A stretch of 46,387 bases of DNA from Microthrixaceae bacterium. Lineage in GTDB: Bacteria > Actinomycetota > Acidimicrobiia > Acidimicrobiales > Microtrichaceae. The notes beneath the pieces were generated by a model. The model searched no databases and was not told where the DNA came from. It was given only the letters and a program-made list of their open reading frames with translations. Shown here piece by piece: positions 18,778 through 26,994 of this stretch; the stretch's first letter is position 1; the number at the start of each line of letters is the position of its first letter. A program made the translations under genes and the position numbers. The stretch spans positions 3,917 to 50,303 of the forward strand of contig JAGQSZ010000002.1 in the NCBI GenBank assembly GCA_020439285.1. Reading direction: 5' to 3'.

Positions 18778-20040
18778 ATGGCATCACAGCGATCAGCCCG
18801 ACGAGTTGGTTTCCGAGTCCCACATCTCTTGGGCGTCGGTCTGATTGCCGTGTCTCTTGGAATGGGGTCGGCGTGTTCCGGGGGCAGTGGTGATGACCAA
18901 GGCGGAACCAATGCATCGACGACTGAGAAAGAGTCCACGACGACCACCATCGACCGCGCGGATGCGATGCTCGACTCGACAACCGTGTTTCGTTCAGGTG
19001 AGGACGGATACGCGACGTATCGGATCCCTGCGGTGGTCAGTGCCGCTGACGGAACGCTCATTGCCTTTGCGGAGGGCCGTGTGACCAACGCTGCTGATGA
19101 CGGAAACGTTGATCTGCTCGCCAAGCGTTCGACCGACGGTGGACGGACGTGGGGTGAACTACAGGTCATAGCTGACATGGGTTCCAACTTCATAGGAAAC
19201 CCATCGCCGGTACTCGACAAAGCTTCTGGACGATTAGTTTTGTTGGCTACTTACAAGGCGGGAACCGATACCGAGATCCAGATCTTGACCGGCACGGGCG
19301 AAGACACCAGTCGCGAGTACCTGCTGACCAGCGATGACAACGGAACCACCTGGTCGGAACCCTCTGAAATCACCGAGTCGGTGAAGCGGCCCGAGTGGCG
19401 CTGGTACAGCGTCGGTCCTGGTCACGCGTTCCAGATCCAGTCCGGACCACACGCCGGCAGGCTGGTCGCCGCTGCCAACCACTCCGACAGTGAACTCAAC
19501 TATGGAGCACACCTCCTCTTGAGCGACGACGGCGGCAAGACCTGGCGGATCGGAGCTTCTGACACTCCTCGGGGCGGCCCACTGCATCCCAATGAAGCGA
19601 CAGCCGCTGCTCTGGCCGATGGCACGATCGTCGTGTCAGCGCGTGATCAGGAAGGCGCCGACGAGTGGCACCGCCTACAGACCACCTCCACTGATGGTGG
19701 CGAGACTTTCGTGACTCCATTCAAGGACCAAACAGGATTGGTCACACCAGTTGTTCAGGCATCAATGCTCTGGTTCGACGGAGTCGACAAGAAGTCTGGT
19801 CAGTTGCTGTTCTCGGCACCATCAGATCCCCAGGATCGAATCAACCTACGTGTCAGGTCATCGCTCGATTCTGGAACCACATGGTCCGATGGGTTCCTGG
19901 TAGGACCGGGTCCCGCGGCGTATTCAGACCTGATCGAACTGCCGGGTCAACTCGTTGGAGTTCTATTCGAAACGGGGGACACCGGAGCCAGTGAGCGAAT
20001 CGATTTCGCCACGTTCGGAGCCGACAATCTGGCGGGCTGA
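18778..20040 (+). CDS. Exo-alpha-sialidase (BNR/Asp-box), probable lipoprotein
   Basis: YRIP motif and five Asp-boxes (STDGGRTW, SDDNGTTW, SDDGGKTW, STDGGETF, SLDSGTTW). N-terminal RR-containing signal ending ...SLGMGSAC. Confidence 0.85.
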   Translation: MASQRSARRVGFRVPHLLGVGLIAVSLGMGSACSGGSGDDQGGTNASTTEKESTTTTIDRADAMLDSTTVFRSGEDGYATYRIPAVVSAADGTLIAFAEGRVTNAADDGNVDLLAKRSTDGGRTWGELQVIADMGSNFIGNPSPVLDKASGRLVLLATYKAGTDTEIQILTGTGEDTSREYLLTSDDNGTTWSEPSEITESVKRPEWRWYSVGPGHAFQIQSGPHAGRLVAAANHSDSELNYGAHLLLSDDGGKTWRIGASDTPRGGPLHPNEATAAALADGTIVVSARDQEGADEWHRLQTTSTDGGETFVTPFKDQTGLVTPVVQASMLWFDGVDKKSGQLLFSAPSDPQDRINLRVRSSLDSGTTWSDGFLVGPGPAAYSDLIELPGQLVGVLFETGDTGASERIDFATFGADNLAG

Positions 20041-20220
20041 TCTTTCGTCAAACCCCCCACGAACGAGCTCGAATCTCGTCTCTAACGTCCGTCCCCCCCC
20101 CAAGACCAAACACTGAACTCGGTTCACGGGTGCCGCTGTCATTCTGTCAGTCACGTGTCAGCCATTGGGAGTAGGCCGTGATGCGTTGCGATAGCAACAG
20201 GTCATGAGTGGGAGGCAAAC

Positions 20221-22494
20221 ATGAACGTCGGAATTCGAACACGGATCGCAGCTGTGCTGTCGGTCCTATTACTGGCCCTGTTGGCGGGCAATCAGATAGC
20301 TAACGCTGCAGGTGACGCGCCGTTCCCCCAGGACGATGTGGTTTTTGACGTTGGGACTGAACCCGTGACCATCAATGTTCTGGCCAATGACTCGGACCCC
20401 GAGGGCGATCCGATAAGCGTCGTACCATCGAGTGGCACCACGGGCGCTGGAGGGTCCTATGAGTGCAGCAGTACTACTTGTGTCTATACGCCGCCAGCGA
20501 CCATTCCGGCATCATTCTCCGACTATTTCGAGTACTCCATTACTGATGGAACCTCCATCTCAGGCTCTTGGGTCAATGTCTTTTTCGCGGACATGTACCC
20601 GCACGCTGTGGACGATTCGGTCGTCGTGTCCGGATCGTCATCGGTCCAAGTAGACGTCCTGACCAACGACTACCACGGCTCAGGGTCGGACATCTCTGTC
20701 GTTCCTTCAACTGGCACGACCGCTGTTGGAGGTGGTTTTCAGTGCACTACCACGGCCTGTTCCTACACACCTCCGGACCCCGCGGTCGATGACTCCTTCA
20801 CCTATCAGATCACTGACGGAACCAACACGGCTACCGGAACCGTGACCATCACATCAGTTGTCTGCGCCGACCCGACGGCTGCACTAAATGATTCGTCGAT
20901 CATCACCGGGTACGAGTGGATCGAGTGCACTGGGAACACCAGCAACGGATCCGTAACCAACTTCACGCCACTGCTTCCCAGCACGGGCGCATCGAGTTGG
21001 CTCATGACCAGCGGAACGGTCGAAACCGCCCAACCACCGAACGACGATTCTGGAGCGACCGGAAGTCCGGCAATACAGAACTCAGTTCGCGGAGCCAACG
21101 ACGTACAGATCCTTCGACTCGACATCAACGTGCCTGCTGGCAATAGCTGCCTGGCCTTCGACTTTGTCTTCGGCAGCGAGGAGTACCCAGAGTTCGTCAA
21201 CTCGAGTTTCAACGATGGGTTCCTAGCCGAGTTGGACTCAAGCACCTGGTCAGTGACCAACAGCGAGATCGCAGCACCCGACAACTTCGCTTTCGATAGC
21301 GGCGGTGACCTGGTGAGCATCAACAGCACCTTCTTCTCACCCGAGAGAGTGGTGACCGAGACCGGCATGCAATACGACGGCTCCACTCCACGGCTCCGCG
21401 CCCAAACCGAAATCACCCCGGGTGCACATTCTCTGTTCCTGTCGATCTTCGACGCTGGGGACCATGCCCTTGATTCCGGAGCGCTGATCGACAACCTGCG
21501 TGTTTCGCCTACACCTGAGGGCGGATGTGAAGCAGGTGCATCGATTGAGATTGCAGTCGATGATTCCGCAACCACCCCCGAGGAGACATCGGTCGACATC
21601 AATGTCACCGGCAATGACCTGCTGGCTGAGGGTGCAACCCCCAACGTCCTGCTTGCCACGGCGCCTTCGCACGGCACCGCAACCTGCACAACAGCTGGAA
21701 TCTGCACCTATACACCTGCCGCCGACTTCAACGGCACCGACACTTTCACCTACACCATCACTGATGGACTCGGCGCCAGTGACAACGGTGTGGTCACGGT
21801 GACTGTCACTCCGGTCAACGATGCCCCAGTGGCGGCTGACGACACGCTCACAGCGGTCGACTCGACACCGGCAACAGTGAACGTGCTGGCCAATGACACC
21901 GACGCAGACGGCGACACACTGACAGTCACCGCCAACACCCAAGGCGCCAACGGAACAGTCACCTGCACACCCACAGGAAACTGCACCTACACAGCCAACG
22001 CCGGATACGAAGGACCAGACTCCTTCACATACACAATCAGCGACGGCAACGGCGCAACAGCCACAGCAACCGTCAACGTCACAGTCACCAAGACTCCTCC
22101 AGCAGGCTGCTCGAACGACGAGTTGTCAATTGCGTTGAGTGGAGCGTTGAGCGGCTCATACAGCGGATGCATCACGTCGGGCAATCTGAAGATCGTCCGT
22201 GATGTCTGGGGCATCGTGTCGGTGAAGGGAACAGCGAACGTACCCTCGCTGAACGGCGGATCTGGTACTGCCAAGGTGAGCATCAACGTGACTCGAGTGT
22301 GGATTCTGCCGCTCTATCTCGGTTCGGTGTCTGTCAATGATCCGGGCGTGGGGGCCAACGACACCGGATACCTGCTCTTCGGCAAGGTGACGGGGTCGGG
22401 TACTACTGCCACCGCTTCCTTCGGTGGGATCGCAGGGCCGTGGTGGAAGTTCAAGTTCTTCAACGCCACTGTGACAGTGAAGGACCTCGCATAA
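20221..22494 (+). CDS. Secreted multi-domain protein: 4 cadherin/Ig-like repeats, a choice-of-anchor-L-like domain, and an unknown C-terminal domain
   Basis: Sec signal ...NQIANA|AGD and GGGAGG RBS. Repeats of type V(N/D)VLANDSDPEGD...FTYTITDG. Central CLAFDFVFGSEEYPEFVNSSFNDGFLAEL matches my memory of the choice-of-anchor L motif. No LPXTG or TM anchor. Confidence 0.75.
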   Translation: MNVGIRTRIAAVLSVLLLALLAGNQIANAAGDAPFPQDDVVFDVGTEPVTINVLANDSDPEGDPISVVPSSGTTGAGGSYECSSTTCVYTPPATIPASFSDYFEYSITDGTSISGSWVNVFFADMYPHAVDDSVVVSGSSSVQVDVLTNDYHGSGSDISVVPSTGTTAVGGGFQCTTTACSYTPPDPAVDDSFTYQITDGTNTATGTVTITSVVCADPTAALNDSSIITGYEWIECTGNTSNGSVTNFTPLLPSTGASSWLMTSGTVETAQPPNDDSGATGSPAIQNSVRGANDVQILRLDINVPAGNSCLAFDFVFGSEEYPEFVNSSFNDGFLAELDSSTWSVTNSEIAAPDNFAFDSGGDLVSINSTFFSPERVVTETGMQYDGSTPRLRAQTEITPGAHSLFLSIFDAGDHALDSGALIDNLRVSPTPEGGCEAGASIEIAVDDSATTPEETSVDINVTGNDLLAEGATPNVLLATAPSHGTATCTTAGICTYTPAADFNGTDTFTYTITDGLGASDNGVVTVTVTPVNDAPVAADDTLTAVDSTPATVNVLANDTDADGDTLTVTANTQGANGTVTCTPTGNCTYTANAGYEGPDSFTYTISDGNGATATATVNVTVTKTPPAGCSNDELSIALSGALSGSYSGCITSGNLKIVRDVWGIVSVKGTANVPSLNGGSGTAKVSINVTRVWILPLYLGSVSVNDPGVGANDTGYLLFGKVTGSGTTATASFGGIAGPWWKFKFFNATVTVKDLA

Positions 22495-22540
22495 CGGAGG
22501 GGAATGAGCGGGCTCCTGCCAGGTTGTCGCCCATTGACCT

Positions 22541-22561
22541 GGCAGGGGCCCTTGCCTTTTT
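22541..22561 (+). terminator. Rho-independent terminator
   Basis: GGCAGG-GGCC-CTTGCC hairpin followed by TTTTT, 47 nt after the 22494 stop. Confidence 0.7.
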
Positions 22562-22581: not shown

Positions 22582-23286
22582 TCAGTCGGAGAGGTGATCT
22601 GTCCAAGCGCTCCCGTCCCACCAACGCTGTCCCACACCAGACGGGTCGGGATACCAACCTGCAGGCACCTGCTGTTGAGCGACTGGTTCTGAAGGTGGGC
22701 TCGGTTCGGCCCAGGCTGAGCCCATACCCGGTAGGCCCGTACTACTCGGCTGAGCGCCAGCCGGGCCTGCAGTTGGGTTGAATCCTCCAGATGCTGCTCC
22801 GGTGCCGCCCCAGGCTGCGCCGGTTCCTGCCGAGGGCACGTAGCCACCGCCGTAGGTTCCTCCTCCGTATCCGTAGCTGGACACCCCGCTGTCGTAGGTG
22901 GCCGATCCAAAGCCGAGAATAGGAATAAAGATTGGTGAGAGAAACGCCAGACCGAGTCCGAATCCGGCACCCTTATTAAACGCTTTCGCCACATCCATCA
23001 TCACGATAATTGCTACGACGAAACTGACGCACGGGATCAACATCAACACAAGCCACCACCCGGGCCGACGCGCCACTTTGATGAGAGTGTAGGTATTCAG
23101 TATCGGGATGATCGCGTGCCAGCCGGGCTGTCCAGCTTTGGTGAAGACCTTCCACATTCCAGCCACGATGACGAACAGAACTGCAGCATAGACACCAAAC
23201 AGGACGACCATCCCGACCGCCGAAGCAGCACTGGAACCGGTATTGAACGAGTCGTCGCTGTACGCCTGGAGAAGGATCGAAAGCAT
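22582..23286 (-). CDS. DUF5684 membrane protein with Gly/Tyr-rich linker and C-terminal DUF2510 motif
   Basis: MWKVFTKAGQPGWHAIIPILNTYTLIKVARRPGWW (DUF5684-like) and a C-terminal GWYPDPSGVGQRWWDGSAWT (DUF2510-like). Confidence 0.75.
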   Translation of the reverse strand: MLSILLQAYSDDSFNTGSSAASAVGMVVLFGVYAAVLFVIVAGMWKVFTKAGQPGWHAIIPILNTYTLIKVARRPGWWLVLMLIPCVSFVVAIIVMMDVAKAFNKGAGFGLGLAFLSPIFIPILGFGSATYDSGVSSYGYGGGTYGGGYVPSAGTGAAWGGTGAASGGFNPTAGPAGAQPSSTGLPGMGSAWAEPSPPSEPVAQQQVPAGWYPDPSGVGQRWWDGSAWTDHLSD

Positions 23287-23367
23287 GGCGGAACTCTACA
23301 ACCGCCACATCGTGGCGTTGGGGAGCATGCCACCAGCTGGAGCCTTCGCACCGCTCCCGACTGAGGC

Positions 23368-24561
23368 TCAGCCCTGGTTGTTCTTTCGTGCCCCCGAAGA
23401 CTTGTTCGAGGCGGTCTCTTTGTCGGATTCCAAGCGCTTCACGTCATCAGCTGTGTTCTCGGTCGATTCAGAGTTCAATTCGGCAGAAGCGCCCTTCAGG
23501 TCTTCAACTGTGCTGGTGGACTGCTCGTAGGCTTGCTTTGCAGCGGTCAGGTCCTTCATTGCTGACTCGTGCTTCTTTGATAGTTCATCGACTGTCCGGG
23601 CCAGGTCTGCTTCTTTGTCCTGCAGATTCGAGAGTGTCTTCTTGGACTCTTCGACCCGTGCCTTTGCATCAGCAAGGGCTTTCTCGGCCGCTGTTTGCTT
23701 GGTCTGAGCTGCTTGGACCTTCGACTTGCCCTTCTTGCCGGTGGCCTGCTTCTTGGCTGTTTCGAGTTCCTTGGTCGCCGCGTCGTAGGCCTTTTCGGCA
23801 GTCGTCAGACCTTCTTGGGCGGACTTGTACTCGCTCTTTGCCTTATCGACGGCTGCGATGACTTCCTTGTGCTTCACGATTGTCTCATCTAGTTGGCTTC
23901 GCACAGACTCGTCCCTGGCCTGTGCTTCCTTGAGTGCGCTAGTGGCCTTGTCCTGATCACTCGAGGCCGCCTTGAGCTTCTCTTCATAGGCCTTACGATC
24001 AGCCTCGCTCATCGTGTCGGCGTTCGCTGCCTCATTTGCAGCAGCAGCCTCTTTGGCTGACTTCTCCGCATCTATCCGTGCAGCCTCGGCCTTCTTCTCC
24101 TCATCTGCCCGAGCTGCATAAGCAGCTTCGGCACGAGCCTGGGCCTCTGGACCGATGAAGACTTCCATCGGGTCGGAGAGCTCGGTACATGGTCCCGGTG
24201 TCGTGTCGACCGGGAACCGGATCTGGCGGCATGGATCGGTGCTTCCCAGGCGTCGGGCCTGAATCACTACTGATTCTGTTGTCATATCACCGACTGTGAA
24301 GGTCAGGTTCTGGGTGTTCTTGACTGGCAGTGCCAAAGCATCGATCTCACGGAAGCTCGACAATCCCTCCAGGATCATCTGCGCCTCAGCTGCCGTTGCG
24401 ACTGCCCGCAGGGACTCATCGAGTGCCACGACTTGGGCCTTCTCTCGAATCTTGCCGACGCTCATGACGGTCACACCACTCAGCACTCCCAGAACCGCGA
24501 TGGTCACAAGAAGCTCCAAGAGTGTGAAGCCCGCTTGCGACCTCACCCTGCGAGGGTGCAT
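23368..24561 (-). CDS. Prepilin-type N-terminal cleavage/methylation-domain protein with ~260-aa Ala/Lys/Glu-rich coiled-coil C-terminus
   Basis: Class III signal MHPRRVRSQAG|FTLLELLVTIAVLGVLSGV (Gly -1, Phe +1, Glu +5). A small ~110-aa globular part is followed by a long heptad-like region. ATG 24561 is preferred; 24633 is an alternative. Confidence 0.75.
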   Translation of the reverse strand: MHPRRVRSQAGFTLLELLVTIAVLGVLSGVTVMSVGKIREKAQVVALDESLRAVATAAEAQMILEGLSSFREIDALALPVKNTQNLTFTVGDMTTESVVIQARRLGSTDPCRQIRFPVDTTPGPCTELSDPMEVFIGPEAQARAEAAYAARADEEKKAEAARIDAEKSAKEAAAANEAANADTMSEADRKAYEEKLKAASSDQDKATSALKEAQARDESVRSQLDETIVKHKEVIAAVDKAKSEYKSAQEGLTTAEKAYDAATKELETAKKQATGKKGKSKVQAAQTKQTAAEKALADAKARVEESKKTLSNLQDKEADLARTVDELSKKHESAMKDLTAAKQAYEQSTSTVEDLKGASAELNSESTENTADDVKRLESDKETASNKSSGARKNNQG

Positions 24562-24802
24562 GAACGATTGATATCCGGTCCTCGTGGTCTCAACCGAATG
24601 GAATTGTGGGATGTGTTGCGCGGCTGTGCCCATGCACGATAAATCGACGCCATCGCTTGACTACTTGAAAATGGACGCAGATGTGATCCATTCGGCCTAG
24701 CCCGGGGCCTAGGACTGATACGACAAGCCAGCCACAGGGGGTGACGGGGATCTCGGTGCGGAGTGCATCGAGTCTGCCCTACCATCAACCGCACCACTTC
24801 TC

Positions 24803-24818
24803 TTGACCGAACGGTCAA
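24803..24818. promoter_or_regulatory. Perfect palindrome upstream of the acyl-CoA dehydrogenase gene (candidate operator)
   Basis: TTGACCG-AA-CGGTCAA, 22 nt upstream of ATG 24841. The AAGGACAGG RBS follows. Confidence 0.5.
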
Positions 24819-24840
24819 CTTTGATGAATAAGGACAGGAC

Positions 24841-26994
24841 ATGTCGATAGCGATCACAGAGGACCACAGAGCGCTCGCGGAGACGGTCGCCAGTTTCCTC
24901 GCCAATCGAAAGGCACTGCTCGCCGCACGGGTATTGCTCGATTCCGAGGACGAACCAATGACCGAGTTGTGGCCCGAGATGGTTGGCCTCGGTTGGGCAG
25001 GACTGCACATTCCGGAGCAGTACGGCGGTTCGGGCTTCGGTCTGGAAGAACTCGTCATCGTTGTCGAGGAGACCGGACGCACCGTGACTCCGGGCCCGCT
25101 TGTTCCGACAGTCATTGCGAGCGCGGTCATCAACTCTGCTGCCGATGAGGCGACCAAATCACGGTTGCTACCCGGACTCGTCGACGGATCAGTCACCGCA
25201 GGCATCGGGCTCGAAGGGTCTGTCGTGGTCACCGCTGGCAAGGCCTCGGGTTCAGCAGGCACCGTGCTCGGCGGAGGTCTGGCCTCTCTCATCATGGTAC
25301 CGGCTGGTGACGACGTGGTGATCGTCGACGTCGGCGCTGGCGTCACGGTGGAGAATCCGCCGAACCTGGATCCGACGCGGCGATCATCTCGAGTGACACT
25401 CGATGGGGCTGCCGCAACCGTTATCCCCGGTGGACGCAGGGCACTCACGGATCTGTCCCGCCTGATTCTCTCGGCTGAGGCTGTCGGAATTGCGGGGGCC
25501 TGCACCGACCACGCTGCTGCGTATGCCAAGGAGCGTGTGCAGTTCGGTCGTGTCATCGGAACCTTCCAGGCAGTCAAGCACCACTGCGCCAACATGGCAG
25601 TGGCGACCGAGACGTCCACCTCGGCTGTCTGGGACGCTGCAAAAGCAGCCGCCACGGGCGGTGACATCTTCACCTTCACCGCCGCTGTCGCCGCCACACT
25701 CGCTGGACCCGCTGCTGACCTGTGCGCCAACTTGAACACACAGGTCCACGGCGGAATCGCAATTACGTGGGAACACGACGCTCACCTCTACATGCGCCGA
25801 GCGATCGTGCTCGAGAGCCTGCTGCGCCCAGACGTAGCGGCCGAGGATCTAGTCGATCTGGGTCGACGGGGAATCAGTCGAGGCAAGCAGATCGAACTAC
25901 CACCAGAAGCTGACTCGATCCGTGAAGAGGTCCGGGCGTTCATCGAGACCATCAAGGATCTGTCGCCCGAGGACCGCACAGCGAAGCTCGTCGAAGCGGG
26001 CTACATCTACCCCCACTGGCCCAAGCCCTATGGCCGCGAGGCGGGAGCCATCGAGCAACTCGTTATCGAACAGGAATTCGGCGAGGCGCAGATCGGTCGA
26101 CCGAACCTGGGAATCACGGCTTGGAACATCCTCACACTCATCCAGCATGCGACCCCCGAACAGGCCGCCCGCTGGGTCCCACCAGCATTGAACCGCGAGG
26201 TCATCTGGTGCCAGCTCTTCAGCGAGCCTGACGCTGGTTCGGACGCAGCCGGTGTCAAAGCCAAGGCCACCCGTGTTGACGGCGGCTGGCTCATCAACGG
26301 GCAGAAGGTCTGGACATCTGGAGCACACGAGTCGAGCTTCGGCCTGGCAACAGTGCGCACTGATCCCGATGCCCCCAAGCATGCTGGGATCACCACTGTT
26401 GTCATCGACATGCATGCAGAGGGCGTCGAGGTGCGGCCACTCAAGCAGACGACCGGCGCCTCGGACTTCAACGAGGTCTTCTTCACCGATGTGTTCGTTC
26501 CTGATGACGATGTCGTGGGGCCAGTCGACGGCGGTTGGACAGTAGCCCGAGCGACCCTCGGCAATGAGAGCGTCAGCATCGGCGGTGGCGGCGACGGGAT
26601 GTCCTATCCCCCGTTGATGCTGATCCCGGCCTATGACGACCACCCAGACCGTGTCGATGGAGGCGCCGCAAGGATCGGCCGATATATGGCGCTGCATCAA
26701 GCCATGGGACTGCTGAATCTGCGCGCAGCCAACCGTGCAGTCGCGGGCGCCGGTCCAGGCCCCGAAGGCGCGATGACCAAGCTGATTCTCTCCGAGCTCG
26801 GTCACGAGGCAGCTGCCCTACTCGCAGAGTTGAACGGCCCGGACACCGCGTTCATCGACGGTGTGGGGGCAATCAACTACATGTTGATGATGATGCACCG
26901 TGGTATGTCGATTGCTGGTGGTACCTCGGAGATCAAGCGCAACCAGATCGGGGAACGCATCCTGGGTCTGCCGCGGGATCCGCTGATCAAGTAG
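24841..26994 (+). CDS. Fused tandem acyl-CoA dehydrogenase (two ACAD modules in one 717-aa chain)
   Basis: The N-terminal half is ACAD-like (LHIPEQYGGSG..., ...HGGIAITWEHD). The C-terminal half is a full ACAD (CQLFSEPDAGSD, WTSGAH, GGTSEIKRNQIGERILGLP). Confidence 0.85.
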   Translation: MSIAITEDHRALAETVASFLANRKALLAARVLLDSEDEPMTELWPEMVGLGWAGLHIPEQYGGSGFGLEELVIVVEETGRTVTPGPLVPTVIASAVINSAADEATKSRLLPGLVDGSVTAGIGLEGSVVVTAGKASGSAGTVLGGGLASLIMVPAGDDVVIVDVGAGVTVENPPNLDPTRRSSRVTLDGAAATVIPGGRRALTDLSRLILSAEAVGIAGACTDHAAAYAKERVQFGRVIGTFQAVKHHCANMAVATETSTSAVWDAAKAAATGGDIFTFTAAVAATLAGPAADLCANLNTQVHGGIAITWEHDAHLYMRRAIVLESLLRPDVAAEDLVDLGRRGISRGKQIELPPEADSIREEVRAFIETIKDLSPEDRTAKLVEAGYIYPHWPKPYGREAGAIEQLVIEQEFGEAQIGRPNLGITAWNILTLIQHATPEQAARWVPPALNREVIWCQLFSEPDAGSDAAGVKAKATRVDGGWLINGQKVWTSGAHESSFGLATVRTDPDAPKHAGITTVVIDMHAEGVEVRPLKQTTGASDFNEVFFTDVFVPDDDVVGPVDGGWTVARATLGNESVSIGGGGDGMSYPPLMLIPAYDDHPDRVDGGAARIGRYMALHQAMGLLNLRAANRAVAGAGPGPEGAMTKLILSELGHEAAALLAELNGPDTAFIDGVGAINYMLMMMHRGMSIAGGTSEIKRNQIGERILGLPRDPLIK

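Follow-up and report, generated by a model that had tools for sequence, protein, structure and literature searches.

A prepilin gene with an exceptional helical tail, located away from pilus genes, in a Microthrixaceae genome

Introduction

Modular pilins, in which a pilin module is fused to a functional module, form a large group: an InterPro-based census lists more than 1,200 such proteins in 264 architectures and places them most probably at the tip of the pilus or, where the linker permits it, in its shaft (Raynaud et al., 2021, PMC8179133). The modular pilins studied so far are minor subunits, and modules that lack a domain signature are missed by a census of this kind (Raynaud et al., 2021). 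Here we describe a gene at positions 23368..24561 (minus strand) of a 46,387-nucleotide stretch of contig JAGQSZ010000002.1 from a Microthrixaceae bacterium (assembly GCA_020439285.1); the whole stretch is hereafter called the window. The product of this gene, P0001, combines a prepilin signal and a pilin head with a long C-terminal extension. Our analyses support a prepilin with an exceptional helical tail that is encoded away from pilus genes.

An earlier reading of the window (hereafter the original prediction) had stated that no type IV pilin or pseudopilin with such a tail is known. This statement has to be narrowed: the literature on modular pilins and on pilins with coiled coils or C-terminal extensions yielded no description of a helical-hairpin module, whereas C-terminally extended modular pilins as such have already been described (Raynaud et al., 2021). 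The searched text and supplements of that census do not contain the word "coiled", and its Dataset S1 lists the pilin-ComEA architecture IPR012902-PF12836 once. The coiled-coil proteins treated in PMC4858521 are cytoplasmic partners and not pilins. Literature searches joining Acidimicrobiia with type IV pili and pilin found no article, and those joining Microthrix with type IV pili found nothing relevant.

Results

The prepilin signal and the pilin module

The domain scans and structure models indicate that P0001 is a genuine prepilin with a type IV pilin module. The gene and the parts that encode this module are as follows (residue numbers are those of P0001).

23368..24561 (-), whole gene, 397 codons plus stop (from the open reading frame (ORF) listing; GC3 0.65, neighbouring genes alike)
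24529..24561 (-), leader peptide MHPRRVRSQAG, residues 1-11, ending in Gly before the predicted prepilin-peptidase cut (N_methyl, TIGR02532)
24367..24528 (-), pilin alpha-1 helix, residues 12-65, with Phe+1/Glu+5 and a hydrophobic alpha-1N, of major-pilin type (helix 14-65 in both models)
24154..24366 (-), globular pilin head, residues 66-136, predicted alpha-beta loop plus a four- to five-stranded sheet, closed by Cys111/Cys125 (head-only model, Foldseek, VIA)

The N-terminus reads MHPRRVRSQAG/FTLLELLVTIAVLGVLSGV (the slash marks the predicted cut), with Gly-1, Phe+1 and Glu+5 (G/FTLLE) followed by the hydrophobic alpha-1N. Scans of P0001 gave 30.3 bits for the Pfam family N_methyl (PF07963; gathering cut-off 21.2) and 28.6 bits for TIGR02532 (cut-off 16.3), in agreement with the class III signal with Glu+5 that the original prediction had recognized. 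Moreover, the three positions (G-F-T-L-[LI]-E) are kept in 5/5 homologues with an intact N-terminus, namely P0002, P0003, P0004, P0006 and the ORF of G044, a genome of the same genus; the N-terminally cut gene calls P0005 and P0045 were left out of this count. This outcome favours the original prediction, which would have been refuted by homologues with a generic transmembrane anchor devoid of conserved G/F/E positions. An in-frame ATG at 24633 would extend the protein by 24 residues to 421 and the leader from 11 to 35; no clear ribosome-binding site was seen by eye before either start (24561 or 24633), and the homologue P0002 has been called with a 33-residue leader.

In a sequence search of the PDB, all ten matches at E <= 1 are pilins or pseudopilins within residues 4-125 of P0001, seven of them confined to the first ~60 residues of the pilin module. 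The remaining Pfam/TIGR matches of P0001 are (pseudo)pilin equivalogs or coiled-coil families, all far below cut-off. Identity with the pseudopilins GspG and GspH was rejected, as the scores (TIGR01710, 23.7 versus 88.85; TIGR01708, 25.7 versus 80) lie far under the cut-offs and the matches are limited to the N-terminal helix.

The head-only AlphaFold2 model (residues 1-137, 43-row alignment) reaches a mean pLDDT of 90.8 and a pTM of 0.72, with a helix over 14-65 and five strands. Its top PDB match in Foldseek is PilA4 of Thermus thermophilus (6xxd; probability 1.00, TM 0.61/0.66 over 126 columns, E 3e-3), and no PDB match of the head was obtained there at E <= 0.001. In the VIA structure comparison the top 15 rows are all type IV pilins (Z 9.2-4.9), including PilV (Z 9.2, rmsd 2.2, 84 aligned) and PilA4 (Z 9.1, rmsd 3.5, 113 aligned), with MshA (Z 4.9) and Streptococcus sanguinis PilB (7b7p; Z 4.9, rmsd 3.2, 79 aligned) at the low end. 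A pilin fold, in which a long alpha-1 packs on an antiparallel beta-sheet, is confidently predicted for the head. Cys111 and Cys125 belong to the motif DPCRQI...PGPC, and both are invariant in 7/7 aligned family members. They form a short loop where the head ends, which is where classical pilins have their disulphide-bonded region. The pilin-like hydrophobic helix followed by a small globular region with two Cys, as originally proposed, is therefore well founded.

The alpha-1 helix also links P0001 to a small pilin of its own genome (G000, an incomplete metagenome-assembled genome, 76% complete in 519 contigs). Of its first 30 mature residues, P0001 shares 19/30 with the small pilin of 94 residues that is encoded in the PilB/C/T cluster on contig C164, as against 3-10/30 with the 12 other prepilins compared; one further N_methyl match gave no extractable N-terminus and was left out.

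The helical tail

The tail (residues 137-397) comprises 261 residues with 21.8% Ala, 14.2% Lys, 12.6% Glu and 12.6% strong hydrophobics, has a net charge of -5, and matches no Pfam or TIGR domain family over cut-off. In the full-length AlphaFold2 model (7-row alignment; mean pLDDT 81.5, pTM 0.45) it is helical over 140-381, consistent with the Ala/Lys/Glu-rich tail of ~260 residues noted earlier. A stalk helix of ~40 residues, an antiparallel two-helix hairpin of ~13 nm with a Lys-rich turn, and a disordered end are strongly predicted, and are located as follows.

24022..24144 (-), stalk helix, residues 140-180, rich in Ala/Glu/Lys and nearly devoid of a hydrophobic seam (pLDDT ~75-78)
23746..24006 (-), hairpin arm 1, residues 186-272 (pLDDT >90; heptad register steady over 207-262)
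23710..23760 (-), Lys-rich hairpin turn region, residues 268-284 (KKQATGKKGKSK; helix break 273-275)
23482..23736 (-), hairpin arm 2, residues 276 to ~360 (pLDDT >90 to ~350; heptad register over 284-350)
23371..23481 (-), acidic/polar C-terminal end, residues 361-397, of low confidence and strain-variable (pLDDT 39-55; run X2)

Strong hydrophobics occupy 0.12-0.25 of the a/d positions of the stalk helix, which if straight would measure ~6 nm (by arithmetic, at 0.15 nm per residue). The second hairpin helix spans 276-381 in the AlphaFold2 model, its end being of low confidence. The turn region at 268-284 represents the most basic 15-residue window (net +6) of the acidic tail of P0001; in P0002, the most basic 15-residue window (+5, 273-287) likewise falls at the heptad break of an acidic tail.

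Three claims of the original prediction on the tail have to be revised. Its heptad-like character holds for two blocks only (~207-262 and ~284-350), which are separated by a break at 263-283 (the tail of P0002 has two heptad blocks of ~55-62 residues each around a break), and the hydrophobic periodicity is modest, since the power at period 3.6 is reached by ~3-4% and that at 3.5 by ~10-11% of 500 shuffles. The degenerate repeats proposed for it are no stronger than its composition would give, the best internal 18-mer pair scoring 42 as against 34.5 +/- 3.1 (maximum 43) in 30 shuffles. Finally, instead of a single coiled coil of ~260 residues, both the AlphaFold2 and the ESM Atlas model predict a folded-back hairpin.

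The Foldseek and VIA matches of the full-length model are all two-helix antiparallel hairpins over ~181-383, among them SH3BP5, chemoreceptor signalling domains, SMC arms and YscO/FliJ, as well as the R domain of colicin E3 (1ujw; Z 13.2, rmsd 2.0, 113 aligned) and the N-terminal domain of RipA (6ewy; Z 13.4, rmsd 2.7, 181 aligned). The neighbours of the ESM Atlas model (pLDDT 0.67) are HlyD-type adaptor hairpins (residues 182-387, TM 0.36-0.44). We take the Foldseek and VIA matches as evidence of shape and not of kinship, because such Z values are ordinary for long helical models. Candidate identities of the tail were rejected: the similarity to EzrA (34.3 versus a cut-off of 39.6), SMC (21.7 versus 567), PgrA (21.1 versus 70) and PspA (15.4 versus 850) is a compositional likeness of coiled coils, and in the case of the HlyD adaptors the hairpin alone aligns, to the exclusion of their flanking lipoyl and beta-barrel domains, with no HlyD-type Pfam family found at E up to 1.

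Relatives and inheritance of the tail

HMMER over 1.84 billion representatives returned 600 proteins at E <= 0.001, five at E <= 1e-10 and one at E <= 1e-30; among the 150 matches listed, nearly all cover the N-terminal helix only. To judge from these searches, the head family is very rare, with about six relatives among the 1.84 billion representatives.

P0002, 48% identity overall, tail architecture as in P0001
P0003 and P0004, 309 residues, shorter charged helical tails
P0005 (G044 orthologue), 361 residues as called (full ORF 395), a ~100-residue Glu/Lys/Ala helix followed by a ~140-residue beta-rich domain without Pfam family
P0045, 287 residues as called, a P0005-type end domain behind a Thr/Pro-rich linker
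P0006, 177 residues, a short ~40-residue non-helical tail only

The identity between P0001 and P0002 falls from 87% for alpha-1 to 66% for the head and 36% for the tail. The alignment of the two tails lies 15 standard deviations above 200 shuffles; therefore, the tail has been inherited, yet it is fast-evolving. The end domains of P0005 and P0045, which are Trp-rich and beta-looking, share 29% identity (E 4e-19). Taken together, the sequences suggest that the tails of the head family are interchangeable: a hairpin, a charged helix, or a Thr/Pro linker with a beta domain. Since the charged helix or the Thr/Pro stretch is placed between pilin and end domain in the relatives, we read it as a spacer, and since nothing globular follows in P0001 and P0002, the part on display there would be the hairpin.

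Matches at E <= 1e-5 occur in 48 of 79 genomes of the bacterial family, but they involve the head in G000 and G044 only; two other long matches are pilins with a different head. The gene is absent from two of the four species of the genus (G042 and G043). A head search in 401 genomes sampled from the class found the own genome only, the sample holding six genomes of the family and not G044. Word-index protein searches with the whole protein and with the head alone gave no relative besides P0002, and the same search with the hairpin region 183-365 gave no match at E <= 0.001 among 2561 candidates. Neither head nor tail found a paralogue in the own genome by tblastn with E below 0.9, and a locus search with a 4-row alignment confirmed none of 594 metagenome-contig and 358 genome-contig pattern matches. 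The ESM Atlas feature search gave leads only (up to 0.80 for the G044 C-terminal domain, and up to 0.86 for the whole protein, in N_methyl clusters).

The 19 loci fetched from the family search comprise 13 pilins of 88-117 mature residues and six longer ones (128-366). In P0012 an AEKE-rich helix is followed by an HHH_3 domain (36.8 bits versus 27), and the mature pilin of L038 (G047:C12, minus strand), with 171 residues, has a ComEA-type helix-hairpin-helix domain at its end; from their sequences, both are candidate DNA-binding pilins. Charged repeat tails are also present on the pilins L030 and P0084.

Pilus machinery in the genome

No pilus-machinery family was found among the 40 window ORFs scanned (12 + 28), as the original prediction had stated for the window, and all six T2SSE and both peptidase A24 matches of the genome lie on contigs other than that of the window. 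Of the 18 N_methyl matches in the genome, 15 are over and three under the cut-off, and this gene is the only one on the window's contig; G000 thus holds at least 15 prepilin-type genes. The prepilin peptidase and assembly ATPase that the original prediction proposed to look for are both encoded elsewhere in the genome, so that the lack of a peptidase, which it had named as a refutation, does not apply. PF01478 has two matches, one over cut-off on contig C285, where the peptidase ORF scores 81.4 bits for A24_N_bact and 35.2 bits for Peptidase_A24. Contig C164 encodes PilB (T2SSE, 411 bits, plus MshEN), and PilC (T2SSF, 177 bits), together with large minor pilins, two small ones of 94 and 99 mature residues, and a PilT-like ATPase that is truncated where the contig ends. 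Overall, what persists of the original prediction is an orphan prepilin with an exceptional helical tail, without the repeats and without the single long coiled coil.

Outside the PilB/C/T cluster, contigs C285 and C318 hold two more sets of genes for large prepilin-type proteins, with frames up to ~1000 residues, one of them sharing contig C285 with the prepilin peptidase. The secretin family PF00263 has no match in the 76%-complete genome, which fits a monoderm and proves nothing. The window contains mycothiol- and F420-related families, and we infer that the host is a monoderm actinobacterium.

Genomic neighborhood

Downstream of the pilin gene lie a membrane-protein gene and a hairpin.

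22582..23286 (-), DUF5684 + DUF2510 membrane protein, 81 bp downstream, on the same strand as the pilin gene (Pfam, 90.2 and 39.6 bits)
22510-22551, strong hairpin with a 17-bp stem and 11 G-C pairs, then a T-run, between the convergent 20221-22494 (+) and 22582-23286 (-)

The minus strand shows no terminator-like site between the pilin and the DUF5684/DUF2510 gene, and from this arrangement the two may be co-transcribed; the hairpin at 22510-22551 is likely a bidirectional terminator that closes the pilin/DUF5684 unit. A DUF5684/DUF2510 homologue with 59% identity is located one gene away from the pilin of G044. The protein could be a partner of the pilin, or it could merely reflect a conserved neighbourhood.

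The positional orthologue in G044 (L052, 9235-10422, minus strand) occupies the same site and carries an unrelated tail; as in G000, it adjoins genes for an acyl-CoA dehydrogenase, TauE and a persulfide dioxygenase. G042, which belongs to the same genus, lacks the gene at that site. The stretch 18778-22494 (+) encodes a BNR/sialidase-like protein (420 residues, lipoprotein-like N-terminus) and a 757-residue secreted protein with four Big_9/cadherin-like repeats; the genes on its two sides are direct or near neighbours in G044, and the stretch represents a strain-specific insertion of surface-protein genes beside the pilin locus.

Occurrence in metagenomes and strain variation

Metagenomes from activated sludge, wastewater and biofilms contain near-identical DNA. 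At least part of it is present in 20 of the 24 listed runs (11 studies), and in eight of the 24 at least half of the sampled words are present. Fragments identical to the gene occur in contigs of two runs, X4 (sludge) and X1 (possibly the source sample). The wastewater run X2 contains a related strain with 34 differences over 23514-24900, in which 23175-23514 is replaced by 336 unlike letters while the flanks are ~97% identical. The replaced stretch runs from the C-terminal ~49 codons of the pilin across the spacer into the DUF5684 gene, of which it takes in the first ~37 codons, and looks like a local hypervariable patch. Two short RNA-library contigs lie on the 5' part of the gene, at 24197-24345 (11 differences) and 24438-24623 (2 differences); the RNA-library run X20 covers 9/30 bins with short contigs, which is no measure of expression level.

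Discussion

We consider it somewhat more likely than not that P0001 is a modular type IV pilin in the sense of Raynaud et al. (2021) with a major-type alpha-1 and a helical-hairpin extension, which is assembled into pili at the tip or sparsely along the shaft; its display on pili, filament position, oligomeric state and ligand are what we infer from the sequences and models. The prepilin would insert into the membrane in N-in/C-out orientation, whereupon the C285 peptidase would cut after Gly11 and methylate the Phe. The PilB/PilC/PilT machine of C164 would then co-assemble P0001, via alpha-1, with the 94-residue small pilin that this helix resembles most. P0001 would most likely be located at the pilus tip or sparsely along the shaft, and therefore its rod would project 15-20 nm from the filament, where it could serve as both spacer and binding module. 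It is our speculation that its basic tip binds polyanions, such as extracellular DNA (eDNA), extracellular polymeric substances (EPS) or wall polymers.

Several observations weigh against this assignment. The gene is located outside any pilus cluster, and the only relative whose context was obtained, that of G044, also has a non-pilus neighbourhood. Within the genus, pilin and peptidase give no signal of co-occurrence, because G042 and G043, which have no such pilin, also have the peptidase, and A24_N_bact was not found in the 87%-complete G044, which carries the pilin. The RNA-library contigs on the gene are short (151 and 186 nt) and are no proof of transcription; cleavage, assembly and surface display are deduced from the sequence. 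The Z values of the hairpin (11-13.5) lie in the range that any long helical model gets, and a monomer prediction, here with a 7-row alignment and a pTM of 0.45, can fold back what is truly an intermolecular coiled coil. In the shaft, a major-type pilin with 260 additional residues might have difficulty in crossing a monoderm wall. Moreover, the idea of polyanion binding is derived from a basic turn in two sequences only.

Part of this evidence would also suit a pilin-like, membrane-anchored envelope protein that is never polymerised, whose signal and alpha-1N act only as an N-in/C-out anchor, whether cleaved or not, and whose rod is a wall-zone spacer, scaffold or regulator. Such a protein might resemble the RipA/EnvC-type extracytoplasmic hairpins that dock on membrane partners, with the DUF5684/DUF2510 protein, encoded near the pilin in both G000 and G044, as a possible partner. 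The orphan position of the gene, with no pilus genes in the 40 window ORFs scanned and none next to the orthologue in G044, would then be expected, the hairpin aligns with RipA of Mycobacterium tuberculosis (6ewy, Z 13.4) as well as with anything else, and the ESM Atlas model resembles the hairpins of periplasmic adaptors. Nevertheless, we regard this explanation as unlikely. A plain transmembrane anchor would need no Gly-1/Phe+1/Glu+5, yet these are kept in 5/5 homologues, and the whole pilin module is conserved (alpha-1 87% and head 66% to P0002, with an invariant Cys pair); its predicted fold is that of assembling pilins, its alpha-1 is closest to that of the C164 small pilin, and the hairpin matches are generic.

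The resemblance of alpha-1 to major pilins (19/30), the best full-length match of the head to the major pilin PilA4, and the frequency of near-identical DNA in sludge and wastewater metagenomes (20/24 listed runs, 11 studies) might further suggest that P0001 is the major subunit of a bristled filament of its own, homopolymerised by the shared machinery, with helical rods over its entire surface. The rise per subunit is roughly 1 nm in the type IV pili solved so far, and a rod of ~20 nm on every subunit would be crowded; the passage of the monoderm wall would be difficult as well. In addition, the modular pilins studied so far are minor subunits (Raynaud et al., 2021), and the gene is accessory, because two of the four species of the genus lack it. 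Hence, we hold a bristled filament to be very unlikely. That the protein is no pilin at all, being a chance ORF or a generic transmembrane protein with an accidental motif, could be argued from the shortness of N_methyl (27 positions) and the occurrence of weak matches (3/18 under cut-off), but we see it as already excluded by the two curated cut-offs passed, the conservation of the protein in homologues, the confidently predicted pilin fold, the homology of the tail in P0002 (z 15) and a GC3 like that of the neighbours.

Returning to a modular pilin assembled into pili, a broader scenario can be drawn, which as a whole we judge decidedly doubtful: a sludge-dwelling, probably actinobacterial lineage may have turned a major-type pilin into a carrier of interchangeable rigid spacers (charged single helices, helical hairpins or Thr/Pro linkers) and end modules (a ComEA DNA-binding domain or the unnamed beta domain). 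The hairpin of P0001 would then be a basic-tipped rod of ~15-20 nm on retractile pili, gripping eDNA or anionic matrix and aiding floc and biofilm cohesion. If this is true, it would be the first pilus-displayed coiled-coil rod. A pilin with a rigid helical rod would represent a new way to space a binding site from the filament, in a little-studied monoderm group. These bacteria are common in wastewater treatment, a setting in which the aggregation of cells has practical importance. Furthermore, relatives with a common head and swapped tails offer a natural experiment on the exchange of pilin modules. The practical value is modest until display on pili is shown.

How P0001 relates to described systems depends on how a module is defined. 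Its 261-residue extension fits the modular-pilin definition in the structural sense and falls outside the InterPro-domain sense of Raynaud et al. (2021), the EzrA score (34.3) being below the cut-off (39.6). The InterPro-based census would not list P0001, because the hairpin matches no Pfam family over cut-off; more generally, a catalogue built from named domains misses helical, signature-less modules. As in PilB (pilin plus vWA) and PilC (pilin plus lectin) of S. sanguinis, a small class III pilin module of monoderm type is followed by a C-terminal module. Unlike in these proteins, the module here is a predicted all-helical hairpin without Pfam family, the connection is a helix of ~40 residues and not a short loop, alpha-1 resembles that of a major pilin, and the gene is located outside any pilus cluster. 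The large type IVb minor pilins CofB and TcpB, which act as adaptors, likewise combine a pilin module, a linker and extra domains that project from the tip, but these domains are beta-rich, they form a documented trimer at the tip, and the genes belong to pilus operons (Raynaud et al., 2021).

Over its full length, the pilin module is structurally closest to T. thermophilus PilA4 (6xxd), which it also matches in sequence (E 0.033); in contrast to P0001, PilA4 has 125 residues and no tail, and the identity is 17-23%. Two helices of ~85 residues folded back on each other are shared with colicin E3 (1ujw, 2b5u), the N-terminal domain of RipA (6ewy, 9hmx) and the HlyD-type hairpins. The tip of the colicin E3 hairpin makes the receptor contact. 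This hairpin is the receptor-binding domain of the colicin and was crystallised with BtuB (entry title). The likeness to colicin E3, RipA and HlyD is a structural analogy only, with 10-20% identity, and their other domains are absent from P0001. Closer to hand, the pilin-ComEA fusions P0012 and L038 of the same bacterial family also join a major-type pilin to a charged helix and/or a terminal module; they differ from P0001 in their head, which has a Cys near mature residue 36 and a C-terminal Cys, and in their recognisable DNA-binding end domain. While extra modules grafted onto pilus subunits are known, the helical-hairpin module predicted here is new, rare and fast-evolving.

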